A DNA stretch of 32,000 nt from Candidatus Saccharimonadota bacterium (GTDB lineage Bacteria; Bacteroidota; Bacteroidia; Cytophagales; Amoebophilaceae): positions 210,001-242,000 of the forward strand of contig NZ_OW441264.1 of the NCBI RefSeq assembly GCF_936981045.1, in the 5' to 3' direction. The stretch's first letter is position 1. Each line of letters begins with the position of its first letter. The position numbers and the translations under genes are program-made. Below are positions 1 to 19,796 of this stretch, in pieces. The notes below the pieces were generated by a model. That model was not told where the DNA came from. It ran no database searches and saw only the letters and a program-made list of their open reading frames with translations.

Positions 1-37
1 TTTGCTAGTTTTGGAGCGATCGAGTGGGTACGATTAA
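1..37 (+). CDS. rpsJ: 30S ribosomal protein S10, 3' end (partial, starts outside the window)
   Basis: Frame 2 reads ..LLVLERSSGYD* with a stop at 35-37. This resembles the S10 C-terminal L-x-L-(D/E)-x-x-S-G-(V/Y) region, and it lies directly upstream of rplC as in S10 operons. Confidence 0.45.
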   Translation, partial: LLVLERSSGYD

Positions 38-44
38 TGTTTAA

Positions 45-680: not shown

Positions 681-681
681 A

Positions 682-1311: not shown

Positions 1312-1314
1312 CAG

Positions 1315-1602: not shown

Positions 1603-1642
1603 CCTTTTGCATTGAATTTTATAGCTGTTAGTTGATCTAGTT

Positions 1643-2470
1643 ATGCCATTAAAGAAACTTAATCCAACCACCCCCGGTCAGCGTTTTAGAATAGCGCCAG
1701 ATTTTTCTACCGTTATTACGGCTCGTAAACCGGAGAAGTCACTCTTAGTGAAGACCAAGCGCACAGGTGGTCGGAATAATCGAGGTAGAATCACCGTTCC
1801 GCATAGAGGGGGTGGACATAAGCGCCGTGCCCGTCTTATTGATTTCAAGAGAAGGAAATTTGGTATTCTTGCATTTGTGCACGCTATTGAGTATGATCCT
1901 ATGCGTACGGCATACATAGCCCTATTGCATTATGTAGATGGTGAAAAAAGCTACATTATAGCACCGGAAGGGCTTAAGGTTGGGGCTAAGGTTGTAGCAG
2001 GTTCAGATGTCCCAATAGATTTAGGAAATGCTATGGAAATGAAGGATATTCCATTGGGAACGATTATTCATAATATTGAGCTAGCACCTGGGCGTGGCGC
2101 TGCACTAGCCAGAAGTGCTGGGTCTTATGCGCAGCTGCTTTCTAAAAGTGGCAAGTATGTGGCCATTAAATTGCCTTCTGGTGAAAGGCGTTTGGTATTG
2201 GGCCATTGCATGGCTACTATTGGATCTGTTTCCAATAGTGACCATGATAATGTTACCATTGCTAAAGCAGGCAGAAGCCGTTGGCTCGGTAAAAGGCCGC
2301 GTGTCCGGGCAGTTGTAATGAACCCTGTTGATCACCCAATGGGTGGTGGCGAAGGCAAGGCCTCTGGAGGTCATCCTAGGTCTGTTAGAGGGTTATATAC
2401 AAAAGGTAAAAAGACCCGAAATCGCAATAAATATTCTGCTAGACTGATCATTAGTAAAAAGAAAAAATAA
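1643..2470 (+). CDS. rplB: 50S ribosomal protein L2
   Basis: 275 aa with [19 protein letters not shown] and [13 protein letters not shown] motifs. Confidence 0.98.
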
Positions 2471-2736
2471 TGGGTAGATCTATAAAAAAGGGACCCTATG
2501 TGGCGCATCATCTACAACGTAAGATAGATATACTCAATCAATCCGGTAAGAAAACGGTAGTTAAAACCTGGTCTAGGCGGTCAACCATTACGCCAGATTT
2601 TGTAGGCCATACCCTTGCGGTGCACAATGGTCATAAGTTTATTCCTGTTTTTATTACAGAATCAATGGTAAGTCATAAGGTAGGTGAGTTTGCCTTATCA
2701 AGAAATTTTAAAGGCCATACGTCTAAAAAAAGATAA
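2470..2736 (+). CDS. rpsS: 30S ribosomal protein S19
   Basis: 88 aa starting [11 protein letters not shown] and containing [29 protein letters not shown]. The start overlaps the rplB stop codon (TAATG). Confidence 0.97.
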
Positions 2737-2744
2737 TTTGAACT

Positions 2745-3131
2745 ATGGAGGCAACTGCAAAGTTAAGAAAACTACCTATATCTGCGCGTAAGATGGGGCG
2801 ATTGGTGGCGCTTATTAGAGGTAAAGGCGTGGTTACATCATTAGCTATTTTACAGAGCAAGCCACAGCAGGCTGCTGTTCAACTTAAAAAACTCTTGCTT
2901 TCTGCTATTTCAAACTGGCAGAATCATAATGGAGTGGATTTGGAAGAGGTGCCAATTTTTATAAAAAAGATAACCGTGGATAGGGCAGGTATGCTCAAAA
3001 GAATTATGCCCGCACCAAGAGGTGTAGCGCATAGAATTAGAAAAAGATCTAGTCATGTTGTTATTGTGGTAGATAGCGCAACCAATTTTGCTGCTGTCCC
3101 GCGTGAGATCGTTTCAAGTACAACTACCTAG
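2745..3131 (+). CDS. rplV: 50S ribosomal protein L22
   Basis: 128 aa with EATAKLRKLPISARKMGRLVALIRGK and ITVDRAGMLKRIMPAPRGVAHRIRKRSSHV. Confidence 0.96.
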   Translation: MEATAKLRKLPISARKMGRLVALIRGKGVVTSLAILQSKPQQAAVQLKKLLLSAISNWQNHNGVDLEEVPIFIKKITVDRAGMLKRIMPAPRGVAHRIRKRSSHVVIVVDSATNFAAVPREIVSSTTT

Positions 3132-3158
3132 CCACACTATAGATGAAATAATACTACA

Positions 3159-3863
3159 ATGGGTCAAAAAGTTAATCCCGTCGGCTTTAGAGTTGGGTTT
3201 ATCCGAAAGCCAGATTCTAGTTGGTTTGCATCAAAAGCCTCCTATGCAGAAAAGTTAATGGAGGATGAAAAAATACGGGTCTATCTAGATGCTCGAATGG
3301 CTAAAGCCAGCGTTGCTAGAATTCTTATAGAACGTGCGGGCAAAAAAATTACCGTTACCATTCGAACCGCTCGCCCAGGCATTGTGATTGGCAAGTCGGG
3401 AGCGGAAGTCGATAAGGTAAAAGAGGAGCTCAAAAAGCTCACTAAAAAACAAGTTGCACTCAATATTGTTGAGGTAAAAAGACCAGATTTGGAAGCTAGG
3501 TTGGTTGCCTTGCAAATTGCACAACAGATTAGAGGTCGTATGCCTTATAAGCGCGTGGTGAAGCAGTCTATAGCTGCAGTGATCCGTGCCGGTGCGCAAG
3601 GTGTTAAGATGAAGGTTTCCGGTAGATTAGATGGTGCTGAAATGGCTAGGTCAGAAGCGTTTAAAGAGGGTTCTGTGCCGCTCCATACGCTTCGTAACGA
3701 TATGGATTATGCGGCCGTTGAAGCCCATACCATTTATGGTAGAATAGGTATTAAAGTTTGGATTTCTAAAGGTGATGTTGCGGTCCATCGTGCACAACGT
3801 TCAGCAAGCAAAGCAAATAGGATAGCAGAGAAAGCCATCGCGCCTTCTAGAGAACGGAAATAG
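3159..3863 (+). CDS. rpsC: 30S ribosomal protein S3
   Basis: 234 aa starting MGQKVNPVGFRVG, with a KH domain (ARPGIVIGKSGAEV) and GRLDGAEMARSE. Confidence 0.98.
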   Translation: MGQKVNPVGFRVGFIRKPDSSWFASKASYAEKLMEDEKIRVYLDARMAKASVARILIERAGKKITVTIRTARPGIVIGKSGAEVDKVKEELKKLTKKQVALNIVEVKRPDLEARLVALQIAQQIRGRMPYKRVVKQSIAAVIRAGAQGVKMKVSGRLDGAEMARSEAFKEGSVPLHTLRNDMDYAAVEAHTIYGRIGIKVWISKGDVAVHRAQRSASKANRIAEKAIAPSRERK

Positions 3864-3910
3864 CTAGATGCCCCTTACCATGATGTTAACTTTTGTATTA
3901 AATCACTAAA

Positions 3911-4336
3911 ATGTTACAACCAAAAAGAGTACGTTACAGAAAAACGCAGAAGGGGAGAATAAAGGGCTTATCTATGAAGGGAAATTCATTAGAATTTGGT
4001 ACCTTTGGGCTGAAGGCCCTAGAACCTTCCTATATTACTGCTCGGCAAATTGAAGCCATGCGTATTGCCATTACAAGAGAAATGAAACGGCAAGGGCAGG
4101 TTTGGAGTAGAATCTTTCCAGATAAACCCCTAACCAAAAAACCAGCTGAAGTAAGGATGGGTAAGGGTAAAGGTGCGCCAGATTGTTTTGTAGCGGTTGT
4201 TAAGCCTGGTAGAATTCTCTTTGAGTTAGATGGTGTTACTAGGGAAGTAGCAGAACGTGCCATGCGTCTTGCCATCCATAAGTTACCTATTAAGGCAAAT
4301 TTCGTAGTCCGAAGGGATTATCATCCAGCTGCATAG
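3911..4336 (+). CDS. rplP: 50S ribosomal protein L16
   Basis: 141 aa starting [15 protein letters not shown], with [10 protein letters not shown]. Confidence 0.97.
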
Positions 4337-4417
4337 GTTCGATGGGTCGCATGGCATGTAAGGTGGTTTGCCTATGGCTAGGTGCTATATTAGGTGGATG
4401 TTCAATAAGTTTTTAAA

Positions 4418-4621
4418 ATGAAGTACAAAGAGATTCAGTTGCTTTCTTCTCAAGAACGCAACGATAAGTTAAAGGAAACGTTGGATTATTTAGTAAAGCT
4501 AAGGTTTGCCCATTTGGTCTCTCCCATTGAGAATCCTATGAAAATTAGGGGAACAAGAAAATGTATTGCAAGACTAAAAACAGCTCGGAATAGTTGCCTG
4601 AAGCAACCATTAGAATTGTAA
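4418..4621 (+). CDS. rpmC: 50S ribosomal protein L29
   Basis: 67 aa starting [18 protein letters not shown].. and containing [28 protein letters not shown]. Operon position is between L16 and S17. Confidence 0.9.
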
Positions 4622-4626
4622 TCACC

Positions 4627-4881
4627 ATGCTGAGAAATAGAAGAAAAGAAAAGGTAGGAAGGGTCATCAGTAGCAAGTCCTATAAGACCATAACCGTTGT
4701 CATGGATACCAAGGCCATACACTCCGTATATGGTAAGTTTGTCAAAACGGCCACCAAGTTTATGGCACATGACGAGGAAAATACTTGTAGTATTGGTGAT
4801 CTGGTGAGAATTATGGAAACGCGTCCTTTAAGTAAAAAGAAGCGATGGAGGCTGGTTGAAATCATAGAAAGAGCTAAATAA
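4627..4881 (+). CDS. rpsQ: 30S ribosomal protein S17
   Basis: The ORF track extends upstream to 4594. The ATG at 4627 gives [24 protein letters not shown].., a canonical S17 N-terminus, and avoids overlap with rpmC. Confidence 0.93.
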
Positions 4882-4884
4882 AAG

Positions 4885-5253
4885 ATGATACAACAGGAAT
4901 CAATACTAAAAGTAGTCGATAATAGTGGCGCAAAGACAGCCCTGTGTATTCGCGTGTTGGGTGGAACGCGTAGGCGGTATGCCCATGTTGGTGATAAAAT
5001 TGTAGTAACCGTAAAGACGGCTAACCCTTCTAGTGCGCTTAAAAAGGGCACCATTTCTAAAGCTGTGGTGGTTCGTACTCGAAAGGAAGTAAAGCGTAAA
5101 GATGGTTCTTATATTCGCTTTCAGGATAATGCTATTGTGTTAATTGAAAACAACAATGAGCCCAAAGGCACAGGTGTTTTTGGGCCAGTTGCTCGAGAAG
5201 TTCGAGATAAAAAGTTTATGAAAATAGCTTCTTTAGCTGATGAAGTACTATAA
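4885..5253 (+). CDS. rplN: 50S ribosomal protein L14
   Basis: 122 aa starting [17 protein letters not shown], with ..[11 protein letters not shown].. and [19 protein letters not shown]. Confidence 0.98.
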
Positions 5254-5256
5254 AGC

Positions 5257-5604
5257 ATGAAGAAAACAATAAAAAAGAATCTCAAGATTCACATTCGAAC
5301 AGGGGATCGCGTAAAGATTTTGGCAGGCAAACATAGAAATGAACAGGGGACTGTTGTAAAAGTATTTCCCAAAGCATACCGTGCCATTGTCGAAGGTATG
5401 AACATAGTCCTCAGACATGTAAAGCCTTCTCCTGAACGTCCTACGGGAGTCATTCAGAAGCAACCGTCTCCTATTCATATCAGTAATCTCATGTTAATTG
5501 ATCCAATAAGTGGGGGCGCTACTCGTGTGGGAAGAAAGCATAATGCATCCGGTAAGCTCCAGCGGTATGCTAAAAAAACAGGAAATTTCATACAAAATGT
5601 TTAA
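5257..5604 (+). CDS. rplX: 50S ribosomal protein L24
   Basis: 115 aa with the KOW motif [24 protein letters not shown]. Operon position matches. Confidence 0.94.
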
Positions 5605-6151
5605 GCCTAGATTACAAGAAAAGTATTTTTCAAAAGTTATTCCCTCGCTCAAAGATCTATTTGGGTATAAATCTCCTATGCAAGTCCCTAGATTACAGAA
5701 GATATGTATTAATCAAGGATTAGGTGATGGTGTATCCAATAAAAAATTAATCCAGCTTGGGTTAGAAGAGTTAACCGCGATTACTGGGCAATGTGCGGTA
5801 CCTACCCGTGCCAAAAAATCAGTTTCTAATTTTAAGCTTAGAGTAGGTATGCCTATTGGTGTAAAAGTTACTTTGCGTGGCAAGCTTATGTATGAATTCC
5901 TGGATCGCTTGATATCCATTGCACTGCCCAGAATTAGAAATTTTTGGGGGATACGCACCACTGGATTTGATGGAAAGGGTAACTACAATGTAGGGATTCA
6001 GGAACAAATCATATTCCCAGAAATTAGCATTGATAAAGTCATTAAGATCAATGGTATGAATATAACTTTTGTTACAACTGCCCAAGACAATGAAGCCGCA
6101 TTTCAGCTCTTGAAAGCTTTGGGAATGCCCTTTAATGTGGAGCAAGATTAA
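5597..6151 (+). CDS. rplE: 50S ribosomal protein L5
   Basis: The ORF runs from 5510, but the internal ATG at 5597 gives [36 protein letters not shown], a canonical L5 N-terminus. That start overlaps the rplX stop by 8 nt (ATGTTTAA). Confidence 0.95.
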
Positions 6152-6162
6152 TTTAAAAAGTT

Positions 6163-6432
6163 ATGGCAAAAGAATCCGTCAAAGCAAGAGATAGGAAAAG
6201 AAGGTATTTGGCAGCCAAATATGCTGCTAAAAGGGTTGCATTAAAGAAACAGGGTAACTATATAGCACTCGATAAACTTCCTAAGAATGCCTCTCCGGTT
6301 AGATTGCGCAACAGGTGCAATGTAACGGGTAGAGCACGTGGATATATCAGAAAATTTGGTGTCTCTCGACTGGTCTTTAGACAGTGGGCTTTAGAGGGAA
6401 AGTTACCAGGTATACGGAAAGCAAGTTGGTAG
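6163..6432 (+). CDS. rpsN: 30S ribosomal protein S14 (long form, 89 aa)
   Basis: [14 protein letters not shown].., [43 protein letters not shown]. Confidence 0.96.
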
Positions 6433-6488
6433 TCATCTAACTATAAATGTGTATACCTATTTTTATTATTTGTTAATGTATAAGTACT

Positions 6489-6893
6489 ATGACTACAGAT
6501 CCAATAGCTGATTATCTTACTAGGATTAGAAATGCTATTCATGCCAGGCATAGCATTGTAGAAATCCCCGCTTCAAAAACCAAGACGAAGCTTACGGAGG
6601 TCTTGCAAGAAAAAGGATATATTCGAGGATATAAGGTGACCTCTAGGCCCAACAGCGTTCAGCCTATCATTAAAATTGCACTCAAGTATGATGCTTTTAC
6701 AAAGCAATCTGCTATTGTAAAGTTGAAACGTGTAAGTAAGCCAGGCTTGCGTAAATATGCCACTTTTGCTGCTATGCCCAGTGTCATTAATGGATTGGGT
6801 ATAGCCATATTGTCTACCTCCAAGGGCATTATGACAGACAAGGAAGCCCGTAAAATTCATGTTGGTGGTGAAGTGCTTTGTTATGTTTACTAA
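6489..6893 (+). CDS. rpsH: 30S ribosomal protein S8
   Basis: 134 aa starting MTTDPIADYLTRIRNA, ending ..GIAILSTSKGIMTDKEARKIHVGGEVLCYVY. Confidence 0.97.
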   Translation: MTTDPIADYLTRIRNAIHARHSIVEIPASKTKTKLTEVLQEKGYIRGYKVTSRPNSVQPIIKIALKYDAFTKQSAIVKLKRVSKPGLRKYATFAAMPSVINGLGIAILSTSKGIMTDKEARKIHVGGEVLCYVY

Positions 6894-6904
6894 AATTAGG
6901 AAAA

Positions 6905-7456
6905 ATGTCAAGAATAGGGAAGCAGCCCATTCATGTGCCACCAGGGGTTGTGGTAGAGGCAATGGATGGAGGGATTGTACAGGTTAAAGGTGTTAAAGGT
7001 GTGTTGCAACAGCGTGTTGATCCAACTATTATGGTTGAAGTTTCCGAAGGGTTGGTTAAGGTAGTACCAGTTGATCCTAAAAAGTTTAAAGCCTTTTATG
7101 GCCTTTATAGAGCTTTGATTCATAATATGGTGGTAGGCGTCAGTGTTGGGTTTAAGTGCACGTTAGAATTAGTAGGGGTTGGTTACAAAGCCAATGTCCA
7201 AGATAAATTGCTAGAGTTAAGTTTAGGCTATTCGCATGATATTGTTTTGGTTTTACCAGAAGAGATCGCTGCCACGACTGAGTTGCCTAAAGGCAAAAAT
7301 CCATTGGTTCATTTGGAATCTATGGATAAACAACTGCTTGGTCAGGTAGCTGCTAAAATTCGTTCTTTAAGAAAAGTTGAGCCTTACAAAGGTAAAGGTG
7401 TTAGATTCTTGGGTGAGCAAGTGCGACGTAAAGTCGGTAAATCTACTAAGAAGTAA
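6905..7456 (+). CDS. rplF: 50S ribosomal protein L6
   Basis: The ORF runs from 6878. The ATG at 6905 gives MSRIGKQPIHVPPGV, a canonical L6 start, and KVEPYKGKGVRF lies near the C-terminus. Confidence 0.95.
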   Translation: MSRIGKQPIHVPPGVVVEAMDGGIVQVKGVKGVLQQRVDPTIMVEVSEGLVKVVPVDPKKFKAFYGLYRALIHNMVVGVSVGFKCTLELVGVGYKANVQDKLLELSLGYSHDIVLVLPEEIAATTELPKGKNPLVHLESMDKQLLGQVAAKIRSLRKVEPYKGKGVRFLGEQVRRKVGKSTKK

Positions 7457-7505
7457 CATATCAATATATGTTTGAACTATTTGGTATTTCTATATAGTAG
7501 AAAAG

Positions 7506-7859
7506 ATGAAAGTGAAGGATAAAAAGGTAGAAAGGAGGCTTAAAGTTAGAAAAAGGATTAGAAAGCGTGTGCACGGCACATTGGCGCAGCCACGTCTCTC
7601 TCTTTTTAAGAGCAATACCTCCATGTATGCACAGCTTATTAATGATGACAAAGGAGAAACACTGCTCTCTTCTTCTCTAGGTAAGTTAAAGATTAGTAAA
7701 AATAATGTTTCGGGGGCATTGGTGTTAGGAAAAGCCATTGCTGAGCAAGCCCTAGCTAAGGGGATTGTAACCATTGTATTTGATCGTTCTGGCTATGTTT
7801 ACCATGGTAAGGTCAAAGCGTTGGCTGAAGGTGCTCGAGCACAAGGTCTTAAATTTTAG
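7506..7859 (+). CDS. rplR: 50S ribosomal protein L18
   Basis: 117 aa with [34 protein letters not shown] and [26 protein letters not shown]. Confidence 0.96.
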
Positions 7860-7864
7860 TCAAA

Positions 7865-8380
7865 ATGATATTAGGTGGTAAAAAACTCAAGGCCAGTGAC
7901 TATAATCTTGAAGAAAGGGTAGTGGCCATTAAGCGCGTTACCAAGGTGGTTGAAGGTGGTCGCAGGTTTAGTTCCGCTGTGGTGGTAGTAGTTGGAAATG
8001 GTGATGGCATTGTAGGTTATGGGCTTGGTAAGGCAAAAGAGTTAACAGATGCAATTGCTAAGGGGGTAGAAGAAGCCAAGCGTAATCTTGTCAAAGTCCC
8101 TATTTTACGTGGCACTATTCCCCATGGGGCAACTGGTAAATATGGTGGTGGAAATGTCCTGATTAAGCCAGCAGCCTCCGGTACCGGTGTGATTGCCGGT
8201 GGCGGCGTGCGTATTGTTTTAGAAAGTGTGGGTGTTAAAAACGTTTTGTCTAAGTCTCAAGGTTCTTCTAATCCGCACAATGTCGTCAAGGCGACTTTTA
8301 AGGCATTGTTGCAACTGCGTGATCCTGTGACCATTGCTAGGCAGCGTGGTATCTCTTTAGATAAAGTCTTTAATGGATAA
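7865..8380 (+). CDS. rpsE: 30S ribosomal protein S5
   Basis: 171 aa with [42 protein letters not shown] and [13 protein letters not shown]. Confidence 0.97.
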
Positions 8381-8387
8381 GGTTGTT

Positions 8388-8567
8388 ATGGAACAAATTA
8401 AAATTACTCAGGTACGTAGTTTAATAAAACGTTCTAAATCCCAAAAAGCTACCATTAAAGCACTTGGATTGGGGCGGATTAATAAGGGTATTGTCGTTGA
8501 AGTTACCCCTCAAATATTGGGTATGGTAAAAAAAGTCAACCACTTAGTAGTTACAGAAAAGATATAA
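8388..8567 (+). CDS. rpmD: 50S ribosomal protein L30
   Basis: MEQIKITQVRSLIKRSKSQKATIKALGLGRINK.. (59 aa from the ATG at 8388). The ORF also allows a start at 8373, which would overlap rpsE. Confidence 0.9.
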   Translation: MEQIKITQVRSLIKRSKSQKATIKALGLGRINKGIVVEVTPQILGMVKKVNHLVVTEKI

Positions 8568-8573
8568 TTGTTT

Positions 8574-9032
8574 ATGGAATTACATACACTTAAGCCAGCA
8601 ATAGGTGCTTTAAAGCATAAAAAGCGCATAGGTAGAGGGCAAGGTTCTGGTAAAGGTGGAACCGCTACTCGTGGTTATAATGGTGCACAGTCTAGATCTG
8701 GTTATAAAAGAAAGATTGGTTTTGAAGGGGGGCAGCAACCCTTGCAAAGGCGTATTCCTATGTATGGATTTAAATGTCCTAGTCGAATCGAGTTTACACC
8801 TTTGAATCTTTCTACTTTGCAAGTATTAGCCGAGAAGTATCAGGTTTCTTGTATCGATCATTTTTTCTTGATAAAGTATAACGTAATCGGGAAAAATGAA
8901 AAATACAAAATATTGGGAGATGGCGCATTAATCTTTAAGCTTTCTCTTGCTGCGCATCGTTGTTCAGCTGCTGCTTTACAAGCCATTCAAGATCTTGGAG
9001 GAGAAGTTAGTATATTGCCCATATATGAATAA
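8574..9032 (+). CDS. rplO: 50S ribosomal protein L15
   Basis: MELHTLKPAIGALKHKKRIGRGQGSGKGGTATRGYNGAQSRSG.. The ATG at 8574 is preferred over the TTG at 8568. Confidence 0.95.
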   Translation: MELHTLKPAIGALKHKKRIGRGQGSGKGGTATRGYNGAQSRSGYKRKIGFEGGQQPLQRRIPMYGFKCPSRIEFTPLNLSTLQVLAEKYQVSCIDHFFLIKYNVIGKNEKYKILGDGALIFKLSLAAHRCSAAALQAIQDLGGEVSILPIYE

Positions 9033-10317
9033 ACTATTTAAGGTTATTAAGGATATCTTTTTGATAAAAGAGCTTAGGATTCGTATAAGGAATACATTGT
9101 TCTTTTTGGTATTTTTCCGTATAGGAAGTATTATTGTTTTGCCGGGTATAGATGTAACGCAAATTTCTGGTAGCGCAAAGCGCGTATTTGGCTTGCTCGA
9201 TAGTTTTTTAGGCAGTTCTCTTAACCAGTTTTCTGTTTTTTCAGTCGGGGTTACCCCTTATATTTCCGCCTCTATTATCATGCAACTTTTGTCCATTGCT
9301 TGGCCCAAAATTCAAAAAATACAACGTGAAGGCGAAATGGGCAAACGTAAAATTGCGCAAATTTCTCGCGTACTTACTATTTTTATTGCTATATTTCAGT
9401 CTTTTCAATATTTATTTATTGCTACAGGTAGCGGAAATGTTTCCATAAGTCGCACTTTTTTTATTTTTATTTCTATTATTATTTTGACCGCAGGCGCCCT
9501 ATTTTGTATGTGGCTAGGAGAAAAAATTACAGATAAAGGTATTGGCAATGGTGTGACCATGTTAATAATGGTAGGTATTGTATCTGCTTTTCCCTCTGCC
9601 CTATACGAGGAAGCGGTCCACCGTGGTAGTAGGTCTATGTTTTTATTTGCATTGGAGTTATTCGTGTTGTTTTTAATTGTGCTTGCGCTAGTTGCTTTTA
9701 CACAAGCCACACGTAGGGTTCCCATTCAATATGCAAAGCAATTGAGTACCAGTACGATATATGGGGGGAAGCGTCAGTATATACCATTTAAGCTCAATAG
9801 TTCAGGTGTGATGCCCATTATATTTGCCAATCTTTTGATTGTTGCTATTTCATTTTTGTTAGGTCTTTGGAAAGATAAATTTCTTTGGTTGGCCTATATC
9901 AGTGGCATGTTGCAAGATTTTACCAGTTGGTTATTTAACCTTTTGTTTGCTTTTTTCATTATTGTTTTTACATTTTTTTATACCGCTATTACGGTCAATC
10001 CTGTTCAAATAGCAGAAGATATGAAGCGTTCGGGTAGTTTTATTCCTGGTATTACTTCTGGCAATGCAACCGCTCGTTTTTTAGATGGTGTGTTGGATAA
10101 GATAACCCTTCCAGCTGCTATTTTCTTGGGAGTTATTGCTGTTTTGCCTGCTTTTGCCTGTATGGCTGGTTTAAGTTCATCTTTTTCTAAGTTTTACGGA
10201 GGCACTTCTTTGTTAATTATGGTCAGTTCTATATTAGAAATCTTTCAACAAATTGAAAGTTACTTGTTAATGCGTCGATATGAAGTAATTATTAACAAAA
10301 GGGTTGGCGTGAAGTGA
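9025..10317 (+). CDS. secY: Preprotein translocase subunit SecY
   Basis: The ORF runs from 8947. The ATG at 9025 gives MNKLFKVIKDIFLIKELRIRIRNTLFFLVFFRIGSIIVLPGID, a SecY N-terminus. The protein is polytopic and hydrophobic with GEKITDKGIGNGVTMLI, and the start overlaps the rplO stop by 8 nt. Confidence 0.95.
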   Translation: MNKLFKVIKDIFLIKELRIRIRNTLFFLVFFRIGSIIVLPGIDVTQISGSAKRVFGLLDSFLGSSLNQFSVFSVGVTPYISASIIMQLLSIAWPKIQKIQREGEMGKRKIAQISRVLTIFIAIFQSFQYLFIATGSGNVSISRTFFIFISIIILTAGALFCMWLGEKITDKGIGNGVTMLIMVGIVSAFPSALYEEAVHRGSRSMFLFALELFVLFLIVLALVAFTQATRRVPIQYAKQLSTSTIYGGKRQYIPFKLNSSGVMPIIFANLLIVAISFLLGLWKDKFLWLAYISGMLQDFTSWLFNLLFAFFIIVFTFFYTAITVNPVQIAEDMKRSGSFIPGITSGNATARFLDGVLDKITLPAAIFLGVIAVLPAFACMAGLSSSFSKFYGGTSLLIMVSSILEIFQQIESYLLMRRYEVIINKRVGVK

Positions 10318-10472
10318 TTTTTTGAATCAAGTAGTAAGTACTGGGTATTCACAATAAATTTAGTATATTGGGCCTGGTTGGGTCTTTCTTTGTTATATGA
10401 TGATGGTGCGCATCAGAGCAGCGAGGACGGAAGTAACTAAAATTAAGATAAAGTAAAATTAGATAAAATAAT

Positions 10473-10700
10473 ATGGCTAAGATACCTCCTATTGAACAAG
10501 GTGGAATAGTACAAGAAGCATTACCAAATGCGGTATTTAAGGTTGCACTTAAAAACGGCCATATCGTTAGAGCTCATATTTCTGGGAAGATGCGTAAAAA
10601 CTATATTAGAATTCTTCCTGGTGATTCTGTTAGGATGGAGTTAACTCCTTATGATTTAACGCAAGCCAGGATAGTGCACAGATACAAAACAACCGAGTAG
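10473..10700 (+). CDS. infA: Translation initiation factor IF-1
   Basis: 75 aa with an S1-like fold: [60 protein letters not shown]. Confidence 0.96.
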
Positions 10701-10711
10701 TTACGCTAATT

Positions 10712-10828
10712 ATGAAAGTTAAAACATCTGTTAGAAAAAGAAGCGCTGATTGCAAGATTGTACGTCGCAAGGGTGTATTGTATGTCATCAATAAGAAGCA
10801 GCCTAAATTTAAACAAAGACAAGGGTAG
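10712..10828 (+). CDS. rpmJ: 50S ribosomal protein L36 (Zn-free C- form)
   Basis: Missing from the ORF track because it is under 60 aa. Manual translation gives [38 protein letters not shown] with the stop at 10826-10828. Position between infA and rpsM is as expected. Confidence 0.93.
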
Positions 10829-10831
10829 TAT

Positions 10832-11209
10832 ATGGCTAGGGTATTAGGTGTAGATATTCCAGATAATAAGCGTGGAGAGATTGCGCTTACGTATATATAT
10901 GGAATTGGTAGGAGTTCTGCAAATAAAATTCTTGAAGCGGTTCAAATGGATAAAGATCGCCGGGTGTCTACCTGGACGGATGATGAATTAAAAGCCATTA
11001 GGACGGCCATTCGTGGTGTATATAAAATAGAGGGAGACTTAAAATCTGAGATTCGGTTGAATATTAAGCGATTAGTTGAAATTAGGTGTTATAGAGGTCA
11101 TAGGCATCAAATGGGTTTACCCGTTCGTGGTCAGCGGACCAAGACCAATGCTAGAACACGTAAAGGCAAGCCTAAAACCATTGCGAATAAAAAGAAAGCT
11201 ACCAAATAA
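10832..11209 (+). CDS. rpsM: 30S ribosomal protein S13
   Basis: [34 protein letters not shown].., [26 protein letters not shown]. Confidence 0.97.
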
Positions 11210-11252
11210 AAGCTACCTTTCTTTTAAATTTAAAGAAAGTCTATAGAAGATT

Positions 11253-11648
11253 ATGATGAAGAATACGGGAAAAAATAAAGTTAAAAAAAGGGTTGTAAAG
11301 GTTGGTAAAGAGGGGCAGGCGCATATTCAAGCTACTTTTAATAACCTGATTATTTCGATTACAAATGAGGCGGGTCAGGTGATTGCGTGGTCTTCTTCTG
11401 GTAAGATGGGCTTTAAGGGATCTAAGAAAAACACACCATATGCTGCTCAAATCGCGTCAGCCGATTGTGCAAAAGCTGCCCATGAGTTGGGTTTACGGCG
11501 GGTGAATGTATTTGTAAAGGGGCCAGGGATTGGGCGTGAGTCGGCCATTCGTACCCTTCAAGAGCATGCTTTAGAAGTAGTTTCTATTAGAGATGTTACA
11601 CCTCTTCCGCACAATGGTTGTAGGTCACCTAAGCGTAGGCGTCCATAA
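11253..11648 (+). CDS. rpsK: 30S ribosomal protein S11
   Basis: [46 protein letters not shown].., [17 protein letters not shown]. Confidence 0.97.
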
Positions 11649-11829
11649 AATAGATCTCTTGTGCAACCTATTTCTGATGAGCAATTTTTAGGAGCAGTGC
11701 AGTCGAGCACTGCAGAATACTAGATGTATTTGAGGAGCATAGGTAAGCTTTGGTACCAAAATTGCCATTAGAAATTAAGTTTCGAAAGAGAGCTGATGGT
11801 TACTTATTTATATTAGAAGAAAATAGCGT

Positions 11830-12438
11830 ATGGCAAGATATCGTGGTCCAAAAGCAAAAGTTGCAAGAAGGTATAATAGTCCGATATTTGGTTCGTCTGT
11901 TAATAAGGTGTTGCAAAGAAAAAGTTATCCGCCGGGGCAACATGGTAAAAGGCGTAAAAGACGTTCTCAGTTTGCGCTTCAGTTGGTAGAACAGCAAAAA
12001 GCAAAATATACTTATGGGATATTACAGCGTCAGTTTAAGAATCTTTGTGAAAAAGCTGCTAAGAGTAAAGGTATTACAGGTGAAGTCATACTTCAGCGGT
12101 TGGAAGCTCGCTTAGACAATACCGTTTATAGGCTGGGTATTGCTACTACGCGCGGGGAAGCAAGGCAGATGGTATCCCATGGGCACATTACCGTTAATAC
12201 TGGAATAGTGGATATTCCTTCCTATACTTTAAAGCCTGGAGAAATAATAGGCATCACCAAGAAAGCAAAGAAAATGGCTTTGATTATTAATAATATAGCA
12301 AATAATCCATCTAATAAATATAGTTGGTTAGAATGGGATCCAACATTGATGGTAGGAAAATTCCTTGCTTTCCCGCAACGTTCTGAAATACCAGAAGAAA
12401 TTAATGAACGAAGTATTGTGGAGCTCCATTCCAAGTAA
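11830..12438 (+). CDS. rpsD: 30S ribosomal protein S4
   Basis: MARYRGPKAKVARR.., YGILQRQFKNL, LEARLDNTVYRLGIATTRGEARQMVSHGHITVN. Confidence 0.97.
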   Translation: MARYRGPKAKVARRYNSPIFGSSVNKVLQRKSYPPGQHGKRRKRRSQFALQLVEQQKAKYTYGILQRQFKNLCEKAAKSKGITGEVILQRLEARLDNTVYRLGIATTRGEARQMVSHGHITVNTGIVDIPSYTLKPGEIIGITKKAKKMALIINNIANNPSNKYSWLEWDPTLMVGKFLAFPQRSEIPEEINERSIVELHSK

Positions 12439-12480
12439 TGTTTCTATTGTTTCCTTGTTAAATCAAATTAAAGATTCTAT

Positions 12481-13464
12481 ATGTCGTCATTAGCATTTCA
12501 AATGCCCGAGAAGATATTTGTGGAGAAGGTTGATCCCTTACATGGCATTTTTAGTTTTCGTCCCCTTGAAAAGGGATATGGTACTACTATTGGTAATACA
12601 CTTAGGCGGGTATTGTTATCTTCCCTAGAAGGGTATGCTATTGTTGCCATTAAAATTCCTGGGGTCCGTCATGTGTTTTCTACTATTGAAGGTGTACAAG
12701 AAGATCTGGTAGAGATTATTTTAAATCTCAAGCAGGTTCGTTTAAAGAAAGTTGCAGAAGGGGGTGACGATATTATTTCGATTCGGGTTAACAAATCTGA
12801 GTTTCGTGCAGGTGATATTGCTAAAGCTACTCCTTTTTTCGAAGTTTTAAATCCAGATCTACTGATTTGTACGCTTGATGCATCTGCCAGTTTTGATATA
12901 GAACTCCATGTGGTAAAGCATAGGGGCTATCTTTTAGCTGAGGAGAATAAACCTAAGGAACCAGTTTTAGATCTCATTGCTATTGATGCTATTTTTTCTC
13001 CTATTGTAAGTGTGCAATATCGTGTGGAAAATATGCGTGTTGGGCAGCGTACAGATTATGAACAATTGACCTTTGAAGTAAAAACGGATGGTTCCATTAG
13101 CCCGGAGGAGGGCATTAGGCAAGCGGCTAACTTAATCATTCAGCACCTCAATTTGTTATCTGGACAGGAAATTCCTGTGCAGTTGCCAGAGGATGAAATC
13201 GTTCAGCTGTTAGATGAAGAAACAGTAGCCATGCAAAGGAATCTCAAAACCCATATTAGTGAACTGAAGTGTTCTTCTCGTGTGTTAAATTGTCTTAAAT
13301 CAGCAGGTATTGAGACTTTAGAAGATCTGGTCACGGTGAAAGATTTTGATACCATGAAATTTAGAAACTTTGGTCGTAAGTCACGTGATGAGATCGATCA
13401 ACTTTTGGCAGAAAAGAATTTGAAAATTGGTATGGATCTCTCTAGGTATAAGTTAGATGGGTAG
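12481..13464 (+). CDS. rpoA: DNA-directed RNA polymerase alpha subunit
   Basis: 327 aa with FSFRPLEKGYGTTIGNTLRRVLLSSLEGYAI and a C-terminal domain (ELKCSSRVLNCLKSAGIETLEDLV). Confidence 0.97.
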   Translation: MSSLAFQMPEKIFVEKVDPLHGIFSFRPLEKGYGTTIGNTLRRVLLSSLEGYAIVAIKIPGVRHVFSTIEGVQEDLVEIILNLKQVRLKKVAEGGDDIISIRVNKSEFRAGDIAKATPFFEVLNPDLLICTLDASASFDIELHVVKHRGYLLAEENKPKEPVLDLIAIDAIFSPIVSVQYRVENMRVGQRTDYEQLTFEVKTDGSISPEEGIRQAANLIIQHLNLLSGQEIPVQLPEDEIVQLLDEETVAMQRNLKTHISELKCSSRVLNCLKSAGIETLEDLVTVKDFDTMKFRNFGRKSRDEIDQLLAEKNLKIGMDLSRYKLDG

Positions 13465-13519
13465 TTTTTATTTAAAGTTAAGGCATACAGTACATTTAAG
13501 GTCGTATTAGTACAAATCA

Positions 13520-13999
13520 ATGAGGCATAGAAACAAAATTAATCGGCTGGGTAGGCCTGCAGGGCATAGGAAAGCATTGCTTATGAATTTATCTAAGTCG
13601 CTTATTATGCATAAGCGTATCGTTACCACTTTAGCTAAAGGCAAAGCGCTGCGCGCATTTATTGAACCTATTCTTACCAGAGCCAAGCAGGATACTACGC
13701 ATTCTAGAAGAATAGTTTTTTCTCACTTTCAAGATAAAGAGCCTGTAAAAGAACTGTTTAATCATATTGCTGAAAAAATTGACCAACGTCCAGGTGGCTA
13801 TACACGTATCGTTAAGTTGGCCAATCGTGCTGGAGACAATGCAGCTATGTGCATGATTGAATTAGTGGATTACAACGATATCTATACAAAAGAAACCAAG
13901 TTCATTAAAACAACACGACGCAGAAGAAAGAAAAGTACGTCTTCTGTTGTATCGGAAGTAGTTGCTGAAATAGATTCTGATAAAAAAGAAGTAGAATAG
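13520..13999 (+). CDS. rplQ: 50S ribosomal protein L17
   Basis: MRHRNKINRLGRPAGHRKALLMNLSKSLIMHKRIVTTLAKGKALR.., GGYTRIVKLANRAGDNAAMCMIELV. It has a basic/acidic C-terminal tail. Confidence 0.96.
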   Translation: MRHRNKINRLGRPAGHRKALLMNLSKSLIMHKRIVTTLAKGKALRAFIEPILTRAKQDTTHSRRIVFSHFQDKEPVKELFNHIAEKIDQRPGGYTRIVKLANRAGDNAAMCMIELVDYNDIYTKETKFIKTTRRRRKKSTSSVVSEVVAEIDSDKKEVE

Positions 14000-14066
14000 T
14001 AGTAATACGTATTGAATACATTGCTTGTTAAGATGGTTCTTAATGCAGCTAGTGATATCATTTTTG

Positions 14067-14756
14067 GTGCGGACTTCTGTAGGTTCTGTCGCGTTGTGTG
14101 TCGTAGAGAGGTATTATCATGAAAAAAAGTGATAATAAAAGCTTCGTATGAGATGAAAGAAGGCCCTTCGAGATCGGTTTTCAGTAGCAGGTCTCAAACC
14201 ACCTTAGTCGGTTGTCATTAAGAGTGATGGTCGTGAGCGCATAAGGAAAAGCTAAAAATAAATTCAGCAGGTGTGAATTAGAAAGATGAATAAAAATGAA
14301 CTTTTGTTGACGTGTCGAGAAGAACATACATGACATCAAAAGTGGAATAGAATGCGGTTCCATGGTAAGTCTATAATTTACCTGATTGCTGTATAGACGG
14401 TATCCCGCATAAAGAGCGCATGATTCTAATTTTGGCTTATATGAGGAACTACGAGAACCAGTCGTCTTGATGTTAAGGGAGACCCCCAAATAGAAAACAC
14501 TATAAGGGATAGAGTACCGATACAAGGCACTGGGGCGGATCAATCTATAGTAGTGAAGAAGTTTCTGTAATGGCAATGGAGCGAAGGGATTGAGCTTAAA
14601 CAGTCATTAACAATATACAACTCGTAAGAGGATGAAGTATTGGTAAAGACAAAGCCGTTATGGTAAATGTGTTTGTTTAAGTGGGAGCCGTATGATGGGA
14701 GACTATCAAGTACGGTTCTGAGAGAGGCTAAAGCTGAAATGCCTTGGCCTACTCAC
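14067..14756 (+). mobile_element. Group II intron ribozyme without an intron-encoded protein (ORF-less, about 690 nt)
   Basis: 5' GUGCG at 14067, a canonical 34-nt domain V at 14685-14718, and a domain VI helix with a bulged A (14751). The inferred 3' end ..AC is near 14756 (+/- 3 nt). The track shows no + strand ORF of 60 aa or more inside. Confidence 0.8.
14685..14754 (+). ncRNA. Group II intron domains V and VI (catalytic core and branch-site helix)
   Basis: DV is GAGCCGUAUGAUGG-GAGA-CUAUC-AA-GUACGGUUC, with the AGC triad, a 9-bp lower helix (2 G-U pairs), a 2-nt bulge, a 5-bp upper helix and a GNRA loop. DVI pairs 14722-14728 GAGAGGC with 14747-14754 GCCU(A)CUC, bulged A at 14751, plus an inner helix capped by the UGAAAU loop. 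Confidence 0.85.
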
Positions 14757-15142
14757 CTGTTTTCAAGAAGTTCTTAGTTTTAGTAACTTTAGTTAAAAGG
14801 TATTTACTATGTTTAAGATTTCTTCCAAATTATTACCGTATTCTAAAGGCTATTGTTCTTCAGCGGAAGTGATCCTGTTATTTGTCTAGATGAAGTGTTG
14901 TCGTATGTTTATAGAAGTTTTCGTGCGTTTGTAGACATAAAGTAGATATAGATTTGTAAATCTAGAATAGAATAAAGAAGGATCTGGGAAAAGGCTGCAT
15001 TCAAGTTGATATTAGATACCGTTAAGTACGTTCAGCCCCGAGGTCTTTCATCTTAAAAACTGAATAGTTCGATAGGCTTTAAAGCCTGTATATGCGACGT
15101 TAGTTTAAAAGATGAATCAATATAATACATATATTATAAATT

Positions 15143-16119
15143 ATGAAATATATAGGCATTGATCTAGGAAAAAGCAACTTTGTAGCAGCTTTTCCCCAAG
15201 AAAAAGGATACCGTACCATTACCTATAAGAATGATACCAAGGGCATTGAAACCTTTTTAGCTCAACTTGATAAATCATCGATCACTGTGTTTTAGAAGCT
15301 ACAGGAAACTATGGAGCCTTATTATTGCAGATGCTTACAGCACATGAAATAGTTGTGTCGATGGTCAATCCCAAGCAAACCAAACATTTTGCGCGCATGA
15401 TGCTAGTTGTAACCAAAACCGATGAGGTAGATGCCCAACTTATTCCCCTTTATGGAGAAAAGATGCAGCCTACCCCTTATATAATTCCTTCGCCCAATAT
15501 ACAGACCTTAAAGCAACAACAAACGATTCTTAATCAGCTGAAAAAATAACTTACTATGTCCTATAATCTGTTAGAGTCTTTTAGTGTATTGCCTAAAGTA
15601 GATGCTTTAGCCATAAAAGCGCTCAAGAAAACTATAGCATTTCTGGAAGAACAGATAGCGTTTCTCGAGCAACAAATGCTTTCTATTACTCAGGCGACCT
15701 ATAATGAGCTCTATAAGCGCATTAGTTCTATTAAAGGCATTGGTTATAGAATCGCTCTGGAGCTTATCGTTGCCACTGGAGGGGGGCAACATTTTCAAAG
15801 GGCCAAACAGTTCTCCAAGTTCATTGGACTGGCTCCTAGTTATGAACATTCAGGCTCTTCCATAAGGAAAAAGGGTCATATCAACCGTCATGGGAACTCC
15901 CAGCTGCGTTCTTTGCTCTATATGGCTTCTTGGTCGGCTATACGCTTTAATAAGGCCTGTAAAGCATTTTATGAAAGATTAAAAGCCAGAGGGAAACTTG
16001 GAAAGGTGGCGCTTATTGCTGTGGCTAATAAACTGATTAGGCAGATATTTGCTATCCTTGGGGATCATACTTTTTATGTGGATGGTTATCTATCTAAGCT
16101 GAAGGTAAATCCTTCTTAA
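15143..16119 (+). pseudogene. IS110-family (DEDD) transposase, disrupted by a frameshift and an in-frame stop
   Basis: The N-terminus MKYIGIDLGKSNFVAAF.. stops at the TAG at 15293-15295. The protein continues in another frame as HCVLEATGNYGALLLQMLTAHEIVVSMVNPKQTKHFARM..TKTDEVDAQLI. An in-frame TAA at 15547-15549 precedes the C-terminal part ..SIKGIGYRIALELIVATGGGQHFQRAKQFSKFIGLAPSYEHSGSS..GHINRHGNSQLRSLLYMASWSAIRFN (IS110 C-terminal domain). Confidence 0.88.
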
Positions 16120-16174
16120 CGGGGGAATTGGGATTACATAAACCAAATTTTTTAAGATGATACTTGCTTTTTAA

Positions 16175-16366
16175 CATAGTTCGTATTTAGAGAATGCCTT
16201 GATAGCCTTTGATCCATCCGAGGTTTTTAGTGTGTATAAAGATGAAATTAACACACTTAAGTATCAAAACGATGAACTTGCGAAGGCTTTAGGAAAAGCT
16301 ACCGTTGAGTAAGATTGGGCAGTGGGAAAGCTAAAGAGCTTGAATTTACTAAGTAGTCTTTCCTGA
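16175..16366 (+). pseudogene. Fragment resembling the C-terminal coiled-coil of an IS3-family OrfA, with an internal stop
   Basis: Translation gives ..VYKDEINTLKYQNDELAKALGKATVE*DWAVGKLKSLNLLSSLS*. The (I/L)GKxTVExDW/FxxKKL pattern is typical of the IS3 OrfA leucine-zipper region. No N-terminal HTH part is present. Confidence 0.35.
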
Positions 16367-16883: not shown

Positions 16884-17032
16884 AAAAAGTTTAATTGGGG
16901 ACCGCATGGTGGCTTCTGATTTTCCATCTTTAGGGGAACACTTTTGGCAACTTTTTGCATCAGGGCTTGATTTTTTGCATACTTTTTGATCAAGCAAAAA
17001 GTATGATATAATTCCTTTTTTCTTTAAAAAAC
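16884..17032 (-). repeat. Intergenic hairpin repeat R1, copy A (full length)
   Basis: The reverse complement aligns with 31099-31245. It contains an 11-bp stem, CATACTTTTTG-ATCAAG-CAAAAAGTATG (16978-17005), and ends 8 nt before the start of the 17040 gene. Confidence 0.85.
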
Positions 17033-17039
17033 TAGCAAA

Positions 17040-18665
17040 ATGAGATACAATTGGTTATTGAGTGCTTCGTTTTTTTGGATAGCTGTGTCTATATGCCACG
17101 CAGAAAGTGAGGCAGGGGCAATCAAGGATGCGGAATTTGTAATTGAAAAGCAAAAAAAGAATAAGGTAAACCAGGAAGAAAGGCTATTTTTTAACGCGCC
17201 CACTCGAACCACAAAAGGCCTTAACAAGCCTTTGGCAACTGTACAAGCGCTAACGCTAGAAGATATAGCATTTGATCCTGCACCTGTAATATATCTTCCC
17301 TTTAGTTTAGAAAAGAAAGGGGCTGGTCTTTCCTTTGACCACTATTGCAGGCTAGGTATTGGTTCCTTAGCGCTTCCTTATCTAGAAGTTGCACTAGACA
17401 ACTGCTCCTTTGCGCAAGCCATTTGGTCGACCCATTTAGCTTTTGTTCCAGAGTTATGGAACAAAAAGTCAAGGGAAACTTCACTTTCCCTACAAGGCAA
17501 ATATGGAATAGGGACATGGCTCCTACAACCCAATTTACATTATCAGCATGATTGGTACAAATATAGCGATAGTCATACAACCTTTAGACGCCTTCATCAA
17601 GGAAAGCTTGATCTAGTGGTTAAACAAGCTAATGAATCTTCCACTCAAGATGGACAGGTAGGTCTAAGCCTACTTAAGTACCACCATGAATACATAAACG
17701 AACAGCTGTTGACATTGAAATATAAATGGGTTAAACAGCTCGATAAGTGGTCTTTAAAAGTAGCTAGCTACAATGATATAGCTGGCTATAAAAACGATAC
17801 AAACCAACCAACCCGTTTTATTTTTTCGATTGCGCCTAGTCTCTATTTAACCTTACCCAAAGCTATTCAGCTAAAAGTTGGTCTAGGAATGGCCTACCAT
17901 AATGATCCAATTCCTGACAAAATACCTAATTTTGATCTGTACCCTATCGTCAAAATAGGTTGCATTGTGACCACCTGGCTTACTCCTTATATGGGCATAA
18001 AGGGTATCGGCGTAGGCGGTAGTGTTATTCCATTACATTTACATAATCTAGTAGCCAAAAATCCTTTTATAGCTTCTAATTCGAAGCTATTACACCCTCA
18101 TCAATACTTCAAGCTATATGGTGGTACTAGAGGTATCCTTTCACCGCATCTTTCTTATCACCTGCATATGGTCTATCGAAAGCTTAAGAACCAATCTAGA
18201 ATCGTTGCTGTTGCGGAGGATCAGATTAGACTGGAGTATAATCCACAGAACTGTAATGTATTAAAAGCCACTGGACTAGTCAACTATAGCATGCCTCATA
18301 CAAAATTCCATACAACCATAAAGGGAACCTATTACCGATATTCCGGCAATACATCGAATCTGATCTGGTGGTACCATAAACCTCTATATAAATTAAAGCA
18401 AATGCTCACCTATAGACCACATTTAAAAGTTTTACTAAAAAGTAATCTGCATCTACATAGCCCAACCATTGTAAAAAATATAGATGGTACTCCTAGGCAA
18501 CTCGGAAGCATTATAAATCTTTCTTTAGGTATGGATTATTTTATTACCGAAAAATTTGCAGCATTTTTAATGGTTAGTAACCTTCTAAACCGAAAGCATA
18601 TTACTTATACCGGTTATCCTGATAAAAAAATCAACATTACAGGTGGCCTACAATATAGATGGTAA
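17040..18665 (+). CDS. Predicted outer-membrane beta-barrel protein (function unknown)
   Basis: 541 aa with an N-terminal signal peptide (MRYNWLLSASFFWIAVSICHA|ESE). It has alternating aromatic/hydrophilic strand-like segments. The C-terminus ..NLLNRKHITYTGYPDKKINITGGLQYRW ends in an aromatic residue, like the terminal strand of OMP/TonB-dependent-receptor barrels. I saw no plug domain or TonB box. Confidence 0.7.
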   Translation: MRYNWLLSASFFWIAVSICHAESEAGAIKDAEFVIEKQKKNKVNQEERLFFNAPTRTTKGLNKPLATVQALTLEDIAFDPAPVIYLPFSLEKKGAGLSFDHYCRLGIGSLALPYLEVALDNCSFAQAIWSTHLAFVPELWNKKSRETSLSLQGKYGIGTWLLQPNLHYQHDWYKYSDSHTTFRRLHQGKLDLVVKQANESSTQDGQVGLSLLKYHHEYINEQLLTLKYKWVKQLDKWSLKVASYNDIAGYKNDTNQPTRFIFSIAPSLYLTLPKAIQLKVGLGMAYHNDPIPDKIPNFDLYPIVKIGCIVTTWLTPYMGIKGIGVGGSVIPLHLHNLVAKNPFIASNSKLLHPHQYFKLYGGTRGILSPHLSYHLHMVYRKLKNQSRIVAVAEDQIRLEYNPQNCNVLKATGLVNYSMPHTKFHTTIKGTYYRYSGNTSNLIWWYHKPLYKLKQMLTYRPHLKVLLKSNLHLHSPTIVKNIDGTPRQLGSIINLSLGMDYFITEKFAAFLMVSNLLNRKHITYTGYPDKKINITGGLQYRW

Positions 18666-19715: not shown

Positions 19716-19796
19716 TGTAAAATTTACTTTTTGCTTGATCAAAAAGTGTGCAAAAAGTCAAGCCCTGTGTAAAAATTTGTTGCAAGCACTCCTTAC
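19716..19796 (+). repeat. Intergenic hairpin repeat R1, copy B (short form)
   Basis: ACTTTTTGCTTGATCAAAAAGT-GTGCAAAAAGTCAAGCCCTG.., starting 15 nt after the pheS stop. It shares the first ~60 nt of R1 and then abuts the TATACTGGACT inverted repeat. Confidence 0.8.

Follow-up and report, generated by a model that had tools for sequence, protein, structure and literature searches.

We analyzed a 32-kb stretch of DNA (hereafter the window) from the Cardinium endosymbiont hosted by the spider Oedothorax gibbosus (cOegib) and identified, downstream of the ribosomal-protein/rpoA operon, a 662-nt group II intron at positions 14096-14757 of the + strand that carries no gene for an intron-encoded protein (IEP). 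The intron runs from 5' GUGUG to ...ACUCACC 3', as delimited by Rfam matches, an alignment with 17 relatives and an empty-site comparison, and it lies inside the left terminal inverted repeat of an insertion sequence (IS) of the IS6 family. We regard it as a non-autonomous intron that is most likely a slowly decaying relic, its IEP having been lost by internal deletion. An earlier, sequence-only reading had proposed a group II intron without an open reading frame (ORF) at this place. Bacterial ORF-less group II introns, introns that home into ISs and the presence of group II introns in cOegib are already known; what the analysis adds is the precise layout of this copy, the IS6 terminal repeat as its target and a fair frequency of ORF-less derivatives in its lineage. 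The main value is for annotation: for one intron copy in an endosymbiont genome rich in repeats, the exact limits, the target site and the origin are now given. The intron suggests no new mechanism.

Structure and boundaries of the intron

A scan of the 32 kb at Rfam gathering thresholds gave exactly two matches, and a permissive scan of the window added nothing relevant. RF01999 (group-II-D1D4-2) covered the domain I core at 14155-14272 on the + strand (88.9 bits, E 6e-17, against a gathering score of 36), while RF00029 (Intron_gpII, domains V/VI) matched 14683-14757 (63.8 bits, E 1.6e-10); the D1D4 and the DV/DVI models thus both scored above their gathering thresholds. Domain V (14685-14718, + strand) was found as the sequence-only reading had described it, 34 nt long with an AGC triad, a two-nucleotide bulge (AA) and a GAGA loop. 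The window contains a single copy, against 0 expected by chance, and the identical 34-mer is present in 49 loci of other bacteria. Domain VI and the 3' tail ACC occupy 14720-14757 (+ strand). Here GAGAGGC pairs with GCCU(A)CUC, again in agreement with the first description, and the bulged branch-point A14751 is at the seventh position from the 3' end.

To obtain a consensus fold we used RNAalifold on 18 sequences, the window intron and 17 relatives, with the ORFs taken out of the full-length introns. The consensus had 167 pairs, of which the window intron forms 148; 91.8% of the cells were canonical, and double-sided changes occurred in 126 pairs. Consensus pairs with compensatory changes were present in all six domains. 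The identity first assigned to the element holds: each of the six domains can be recognised and has support from covariation, and there is no IEP gene. Projected onto the window (+ strand), domain II extends approximately from 14455 to 14536, with compensatory changes in 13 of its 14 pairs, and domain III approximately from 14540 to 14593, with one mismatch private to this copy (14563-14574, U/C). The 662-nt RNA had a minimum free energy (MFE) z-score of -5.0 relative to shuffled sequences, and its single-sequence fold already recovered the DV, DVI and DIVa hairpins and that of exon-binding site 1 (EBS1).

The 5' end was placed differently from the sequence-only reading, which had started the intron at a GUGCG at 14067, right after a T-run, an arrangement that would resemble that of class C introns. 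Class C introns insert after terminator stem-loops and do so without EBS2. The GTGCG at 14067 is indeed present, fits the GUGYG consensus and is preceded by TTTTT. However, the relatives all start with GUGUG(C/U)C or GUGCGCC, after which come a short hairpin and ...AUGC/U..AGAUG, and the window aligns to their 5' end only from GTGTGTCGTAGAG at 14096, leaving the GTGCG outside the homology. The GUGYG motif of the intron is GUGUG at 14096-14100; 16 of the 17 relatives have GUGUG or GUGCG, and the remaining one (L003) a degenerate GAGUG. Pairing with the exon gave the same answer. The EBS1 hairpin (14342-14363, + strand; stem GUGGAA/UUCCAU) carries in its loop AAUGCGG (14351-14357), which pairs with UCGCGUU at 14089-14095, the intron-binding site 1 (IBS1), and forms eight contiguous pairs with an exon ending at 14095 (..GUCGCGUU) but only five with one ending at 14066. 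Over 18 introns, cognate loop-exon combinations had a mean of 5.67 contiguous pairs versus 3.34 for non-cognate ones. Because the pairing covaries across the family in this way, the loop at 14351-14357 is EBS1 and the 5' splice site is fixed. A candidate EBS2 (AGAAC, 14321-14325, + strand) is an unpaired stretch of domain I complementary to the putative IBS2, GUUCU at 14083-14087. In L016 and L017, too, the corresponding stretch pairs with the exon of the same intron, though this evidence is weaker than that for EBS1, with less clear covariation. Both IBS1 and IBS2 were read from the sequence, and IBS1 is supported by covariation.

The empty site confirmed this placement. When 14096-14757 was deleted, the remaining sequence was colinear with the intact IS6 left end of the cEper1 plasmid pCher. 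Aligned pairwise, the two sequences become homologous precisely at GGTTCTGTCGC (window 14082) and stay so across the 14095/14758 junction without a break, and the distance from the inverted repeat to the transposase ATG is 65 nt in the ligated window exons versus 64 nt in pCher. Since this alignment runs across the junction, we set the intron at 14096-14757, i.e., at 662 nt rather than the ~690 nt first given, the earlier boundaries having been off by 29 nt on the 5' side and 1 nt on the 3' side. A start at 14067 is accordingly next to impossible: positions 14082-14095 belong to the IS6 inverted repeat, so that the empty-site alignment refutes it, no terminator is predicted there and EBS2-IBS2 pairing is present, unlike in class C introns. 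The T-run (14061-14065) lies 30 nt upstream of the true 5' splice site and is unrelated to the insertion site.

For the 3' end we relied on relatives. Introns of the broad family end in ...CUACUCGAC (..CUCGAC), whereas the window intron and two others, from a plasmid of Candidatus Megaera polyxenophila (L053) and from the Neochlamydia sp. S13 plasmid pS13 (L054), instead end in ...CUC(A/U)CC. The L054 intron interrupts an IS701 transposase gene, and the reading frame (RWTIEE joined to CFEASKGEIGLDHYEVRSY) is restored only if the intron ends after ..CACC. By analogy with L054, we place the 3' end of the window intron at 14757 (...CACC) rather than at the ..AC at 14756 that had been proposed. 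A search for EBS3/IBS3 found no alignment column complementary to the first 3'-exon base in >75% of the relatives, and EBS3/IBS3 was not used for setting the 3' end.

Loss of the IEP gene and the IS6 target

Domain IV (14594-14683, + strand) was shrunk to ~90 nt in comparison with ~1.3 kb in full-length relatives. No + strand ORF within the intron exceeds 36 aa, in line with the earlier statement that there was none of 60 aa or more, and tblastn with 14 related IEPs found no reverse transcriptase (RT) remnant anywhere in the window. An antisense ORF of 131 aa (14181-14576) had no significant Pfam match and was treated as spurious. What domain IV retains is the DIVa hairpin CUC-GUAA-GAG (14621-14630; CAACUCGUAAGAGGAUGAA) with the Shine-Dalgarno sequence GAGGA, followed by a remnant ORF at 14632-14646 that reads ATG AAG TAT TGG TAA (ATG plus four codons). 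In characterised introns, DIVa, which carries the Shine-Dalgarno sequence and start codon of the IEP, is the primary binding site of the maturase. After the remnant ORF come ~15 nt resembling codons 6-10 of the IEP of a full-length relative (L017), and domain IV then closes. In the full-length relatives the same stretch reads CAACTCG..GAGGATGAATYTATGGAA (M-N-L-W...) and continues into an IEP ORF of ~1.2 kb. Because DIVa, the Shine-Dalgarno sequence and the ATG with four codons remain, the window copy arose by deletion of the ORF. The ORF starts differ between ORF-less copies, being ATGAAAGCAAAACG (MKAKP-type IEP) in L003 and ATGAAGTATTGG (MNLW-type) in the window; the deletions in these two copies were therefore independent.

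The sequence-only reading had placed the element just downstream of the operon that ends in rplQ. This holds for its position, but its immediate host is the IS6 left inverted repeat and not the 3' region of the operon itself. The operon occupies 1-13999 of the window, and its last gene, rplQ (50S ribosomal protein L17; 13520-13999, + strand), exactly matches WP_250238546.1 of the Cardinium endosymbiont of Oedothorax gibbosus. In all, four proteins encoded in the window are exact and unique matches to proteins of this endosymbiont, on a contig of 1,137,202 bp. The IS6 copy starts 83 nt past the rplQ stop codon and the intron 96 nt past it, on the same strand as the operon. No intrinsic terminator was predicted in the interval between rplQ and the element, which agrees with what had been noted from the sequence. 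The 5' exon is made up of the 14 outermost nucleotides of an ISCca2-like IS6-family element, which belong to its left terminal inverted repeat (14082-14095, + strand; GGTTCTGTCGCGTT) and are colinear with the uninterrupted IS6 left end on pCher. The intron is thus inserted 14 nt inside the repeat, and IBS1 and IBS2 lie in the repeat itself. The 3' exon is the rest of the IS6 left end (14758-14905, + strand). It is 73.6% identical to a locus on pCher annotated as an IS6 family transposase and is also similar to a second IS6 copy. When ligated, the exons (14060-14095 plus 14758-14905) match a single record, this same pCher locus, whose IS6 inverted repeats are GGTTCTGTCGCATCTGTA... and GGCTCTGTCGCATCTGTA..., and in alignment with it the window shows the terminal inverted repeat GG(T/C)TCTGTCGC... 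and, after it, an IS6 transposase gene. The flank at 14827-14901 matches the beginning of an IS6-type transposase gene carried by the cEper1 plasmid. In the window, the transposase starts with ATG at 14809 and has an in-frame stop at 14887, so it is a pseudogene. An IS701-like coding remnant in the intron flanks was also considered and was rejected, the best tblastn E-value being 1.

IS6 homology in the window is lost before 14978, where an ISCca12-like element of the IS110 family begins (14978-16184, + strand). This element is 76.9% identical over 1142 nt to an IS110 on pCher, and its transposase (NCBI name transposase; Pfam Transposase_20 and DEDD_Tnp_IS110) is frameshifted into at least three frame pieces (15143-15295, 15325-15549 and 15556-16119). 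The IS110 element abuts the truncated IS6, and three mobile elements are thereby nested in the 2.1 kb after rplQ. We found no empty site downstream of rplQ in other Cardinium strains (L050, L051 and L052), synteny being lost there. The closest Cardinium relative is 94% identical over 13400-13982, its homology ending at 13982, shortly ahead of the stop codon of rplQ; Cardinium strains differ in the C-terminal tail of L17 and in everything downstream. Further along, two short segments (16914-17020 and 19723-19786) match several places in both orientations in loci of another Cardinium metagenome-assembled genome (MAG; L051/L052), and these may be IS ends or the MITE (a miniature transposable element with inverted repeats) described for cOegib. 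A 541-aa ORF at 17040-18665, annotated as hypothetical, had no Pfam match and formed a singleton cluster.

Relatives and classification

We scanned a collection with one genome per species, which did not contain the cOegib genome, for the exact 34-nt domain V. The scan identified 49 loci, mostly from Bacteroidota MAGs and isolates and none from Cardinium. The distance from the RF01999 match to domain V in this set was either ~1.71-1.80 kb or ~0.50-0.57 kb, and the lineage therefore comprises ORF-less as well as full-length introns. The latter measure 1834-1924 nt and encode IEPs of ~405-420 aa, in which RT and X/maturase are the only domains and an endonuclease domain is lacking. The L017 IEP scored 418.7 bits on TIGR04416 (cutoff 300), and against solved structures IEPs of this type had only distant matches, to IIC and other IEPs. 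Among the ~31 loci with enough upstream sequence, six or seven were ORF-less: L003 (Pedobacter), L005 (Tenacibaculum), L019 (Marinifilaceae), L021 (Flavobacterium), L044, L049 and perhaps L013.

The closest ribozymes in annotated records were found outside the Bacteroidota, with the Candidatus Megaera polyxenophila plasmid intron (L053) 71.6% identical over 514 aligned nt and the Neochlamydia pS13 intron (L054) 71.1% identical over 470 nt. Relatives on metagenomic contigs were 72-74% identical. A 25-mer specific to the window had no match in metagenomes and no near-identical copy was present in the metagenome collection, where the pattern of the sub-lineage was found at 33 loci, all <=74% identical. 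Introns of the lineage are common among Bacteroidota, and other intracellular symbionts have them as well.

For classification we compared the L017 IEP with known proteins. It was 45-47% identical over 96% of its length to the IEP of a multi-copy Sinorhizobium meliloti plasmid intron, which we take to be RmInt1 (class D), and ~41% identical to an IEP on Shigella/E. coli plasmids, presumably S.f.I1/E.c.I4 (class A). As a lead, drawn from pairwise identities only, the lineage would combine an IIB-like RNA with an endonuclease-less IEP closest to the RmInt1/class D type. Class D corresponds to IIB3, and the class names follow PMC3552965. Membership in class C (IIC) was ruled out by the 662-nt size of the ribozyme, the EBS2-IBS2 pairing and the lack of a terminator target.

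Several relatives also lie in mobile DNA. The introns of L015 and L031 are in tnpA genes of the IS200/IS605 type (..SLSHT followed by RWNLKYHIVFIPK), and that of L054 (1964-2930 and 6323 onward) is in an IS701 transposase gene whose frame is exactly restored by splicing. The lineage seems to prefer mobile-element targets. The first ~20 nt of the 3' exon are alike in the window (14758-14780, TGTTTTCAAGAAGTTCTTAG) and in L054 (6323-6346, AATGTTTTGAAGCTTCTAAAG), though the hosts differ (IS6 repeat versus IS701 gene), and this likeness may be due to chance or to a shared 3'-exon preference. The ORF-less intron of L019 (~2230-2250, intron orientation) is directly preceded by ..CCACTACTCGAC, like the 3' end of an intron of the same family, and in L071 a DV/DVI segment lies ~80 nt upstream of the 5' part of another intron; these arrangements suggest tandem or nested introns. 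The IEP region of L042 (intron ~560-1700) translates to a G/P-rich low-complexity sequence while its ribozyme parts are normal, which probably reflects an error of assembly or polishing in the public record. The Megaera plasmid IEP (L053, 3485-4755) is in two overlapping frames (217 aa and 206 aa) and has probably become a pseudogene by frameshift; this would account for the lack of a coding sequence (CDS) at that place in the plasmid table.

Origin of the copy and comparison with known introns

The sequence-only reading had called the intron structurally intact. All six domains are present, yet the wording was slightly generous, as four pairs, each of them canonical in every one of the 17 relatives, are disrupted in the window copy alone: 14302-14417, 14316-14406, 14563-14574 (domain III) and 14732-14743 (distal part of domain VI). 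By the same count, well-aligned relatives had 0-2 private broken pairs and L054, where the intron is interrupted by a transposase gene, had five. A first estimate of decay (eight private broken pairs and eight private deviations) was halved once L053 and L054 joined the alignment, and GGGAGC before domain V, UAGAG near the 5' end and the CACC tail are traits of the lineage, not private deviations. At the level of sequence, the four private mismatches suggest mild decay. An IS6-family element had landed 83 nt downstream of the rplQ stop codon, and we propose that the intron or its full-length parent retrohomed by EBS1/EBS2 pairing into the left terminal inverted repeat of this element. The RT/maturase gene was lost through an internal deletion of ~1.2 kb in domain IV. 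The IS6 transposase gene is a pseudogene today, with IS6 homology ending just before the IS110 pseudogene. Such an intron would no longer be moved or assisted by its own protein, and to splice or move it would have to be served in trans by the maturase of a full-length sibling. Transcription, if any, would come by read-through from the operon or from an IS6 promoter; read-through is conceivable because no terminator is predicted between rplQ and the intron.

A decaying relic ranks above an element active in trans, and we consider a domesticated ribozyme very unlikely, because nothing depends on excision of the intron and the helices carry private breaking substitutions. An active non-autonomous retroelement, for which a full-length sibling elsewhere in the Cardinium genome would supply the RT/maturase, splice the intron and mobilise it into other IS6 repeats, is nevertheless a possibility of some weight, if clearly the less probable one. 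The DIVa hairpin with its Shine-Dalgarno sequence and ATG, usually the high-affinity site for the IEP, has been kept, domain V is identical to that of many full-length introns and the EBS-IBS pairing is intact. The genome is reported to contain group II introns and 109 ISCca2 copies, which are many potential targets (PMC9769881), and the ORF-less introns known from bacteria are nearly always found alongside related introns that encode an IEP (PMC4424553). On the other hand, neither a helper IEP nor a second copy is present within the 32-kb window, the copy has the four private helix mismatches and the metagenome collection held nothing nearly identical. No Cardinium was named among the matches listed (120 of 8000) in the IEP homology search. 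Self-sufficient splicing without a maturase, as in C.te.I1 of Clostridium tetani (PMC4424553), would be compatible with the full set of catalytic domains, the MFE z-score of -5.0 and the DV, DVI and EBS1 hairpins of the single-sequence fold. We judge it improbable, since the intron interrupts no gene that needs splicing and is flanked by dead IS sequence, which leaves self-splicing without selection, and since the retained IEP-binding DIVa is typical of protein-dependent relatives. Still less credible is a domesticated ribozyme, one of the options raised by the sequence-only reading, or a regulatory RNA in the 3' untranslated region of the highly expressed ribosomal-protein operon. The location on the operon strand, 96 nt after the rplQ stop codon with no predicted terminator between, would suit such a role, but the insertion site is an IS6 inverted repeat in junk DNA and not operon sequence, the downstream region is not conserved even in the Cardinium relative that is 94% identical over 13400-13982, and the private substitutions are destabilising.

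Some observations weigh against a decaying group II relic. The 3' terminal dinucleotide is CC instead of the usual AY, although it appears to be a trait of the sub-lineage, since L053 and L054 share it. Some of the mismatches counted as private could be traits of an unsampled lineage, the nearest relatives being only 67-74% identical. The catalytic core is unblemished and DIVa is conserved, which fits continued use in trans. Lastly, for a second copy or an IEP, the choice between a relic and a trans-active element draws on the 32-kb window.

An IS needs its terminal repeats for transposition. If a helper IEP exists, the ORF-less form, with its exon-binding sites tuned to the ISCca2 terminal repeat, could be a miniature "parasite of a parasite" that spreads in trans through ISCca2 ends, an idea that we hold to be rather unlikely. 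Were it true, the intron would split the IS repeat after the first 14 bp and contribute to the mass inactivation of ISs in the endosymbiont. Manual curation of cOegib assigned 29.6% of the genome to mobile DNA and counted 300 IS copies, including 109 of ISCca2 (IS6 family) and nine of ISCca12 (IS110), and it mentions "group II introns" without description (PMC9769881). ISCca2 is the most abundant IS of the genome, and its 109 copies therefore offer >200 ends as potential targets. More generally, in a genome full of ISs, an intron that recognises the terminal repeat of an IS would find hundreds of sites at which insertion is safe.

The window copy resembles other bacterial ORF-less introns in being a complete ribozyme without an IEP, derived from a retroelement and presumed to depend on an IEP in trans. 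Bacterial ORF-less introns have been called rare and are almost always accompanied by a related IEP-encoding intron (Simon et al. 2008 in Zimmerly & Semper 2015, PMC4424553). In contrast, ORF-less derivatives make up about one-fifth of the assessable loci (six or seven of ~31) in this Bacteroidota-centred lineage, and they go back to independent deletions. C.te.I1 is likewise an ORF-less bacterial intron, with no IEP in its genome and self-splicing, but it lies in a functional gene and must splice, whereas the window intron lies in a dead IS and keeps the IEP-binding DIVa.

RmInt1 of S. meliloti (class D, IIB3 RNA) homes into ISRm2011-2. It is comparable to the lineage described here in its IS target and in the endonuclease-less RT-maturase of ~417 aa found in relatives of the window intron; the window copy differs in lacking an IEP and in having an IS6 terminal inverted repeat as its target. 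Among annotated records, the nearest likeness is to the L053 and L054 introns, which share with the window copy the GGGAGC before domain V, the 3' end ..CUC(A/U)CC and a host that is an intracellular symbiont. Unlike the window copy, both still have an IEP region, with a frameshift in L053 and a transposase gene breaking it up in L054, and their domain V sequences and targets are different.

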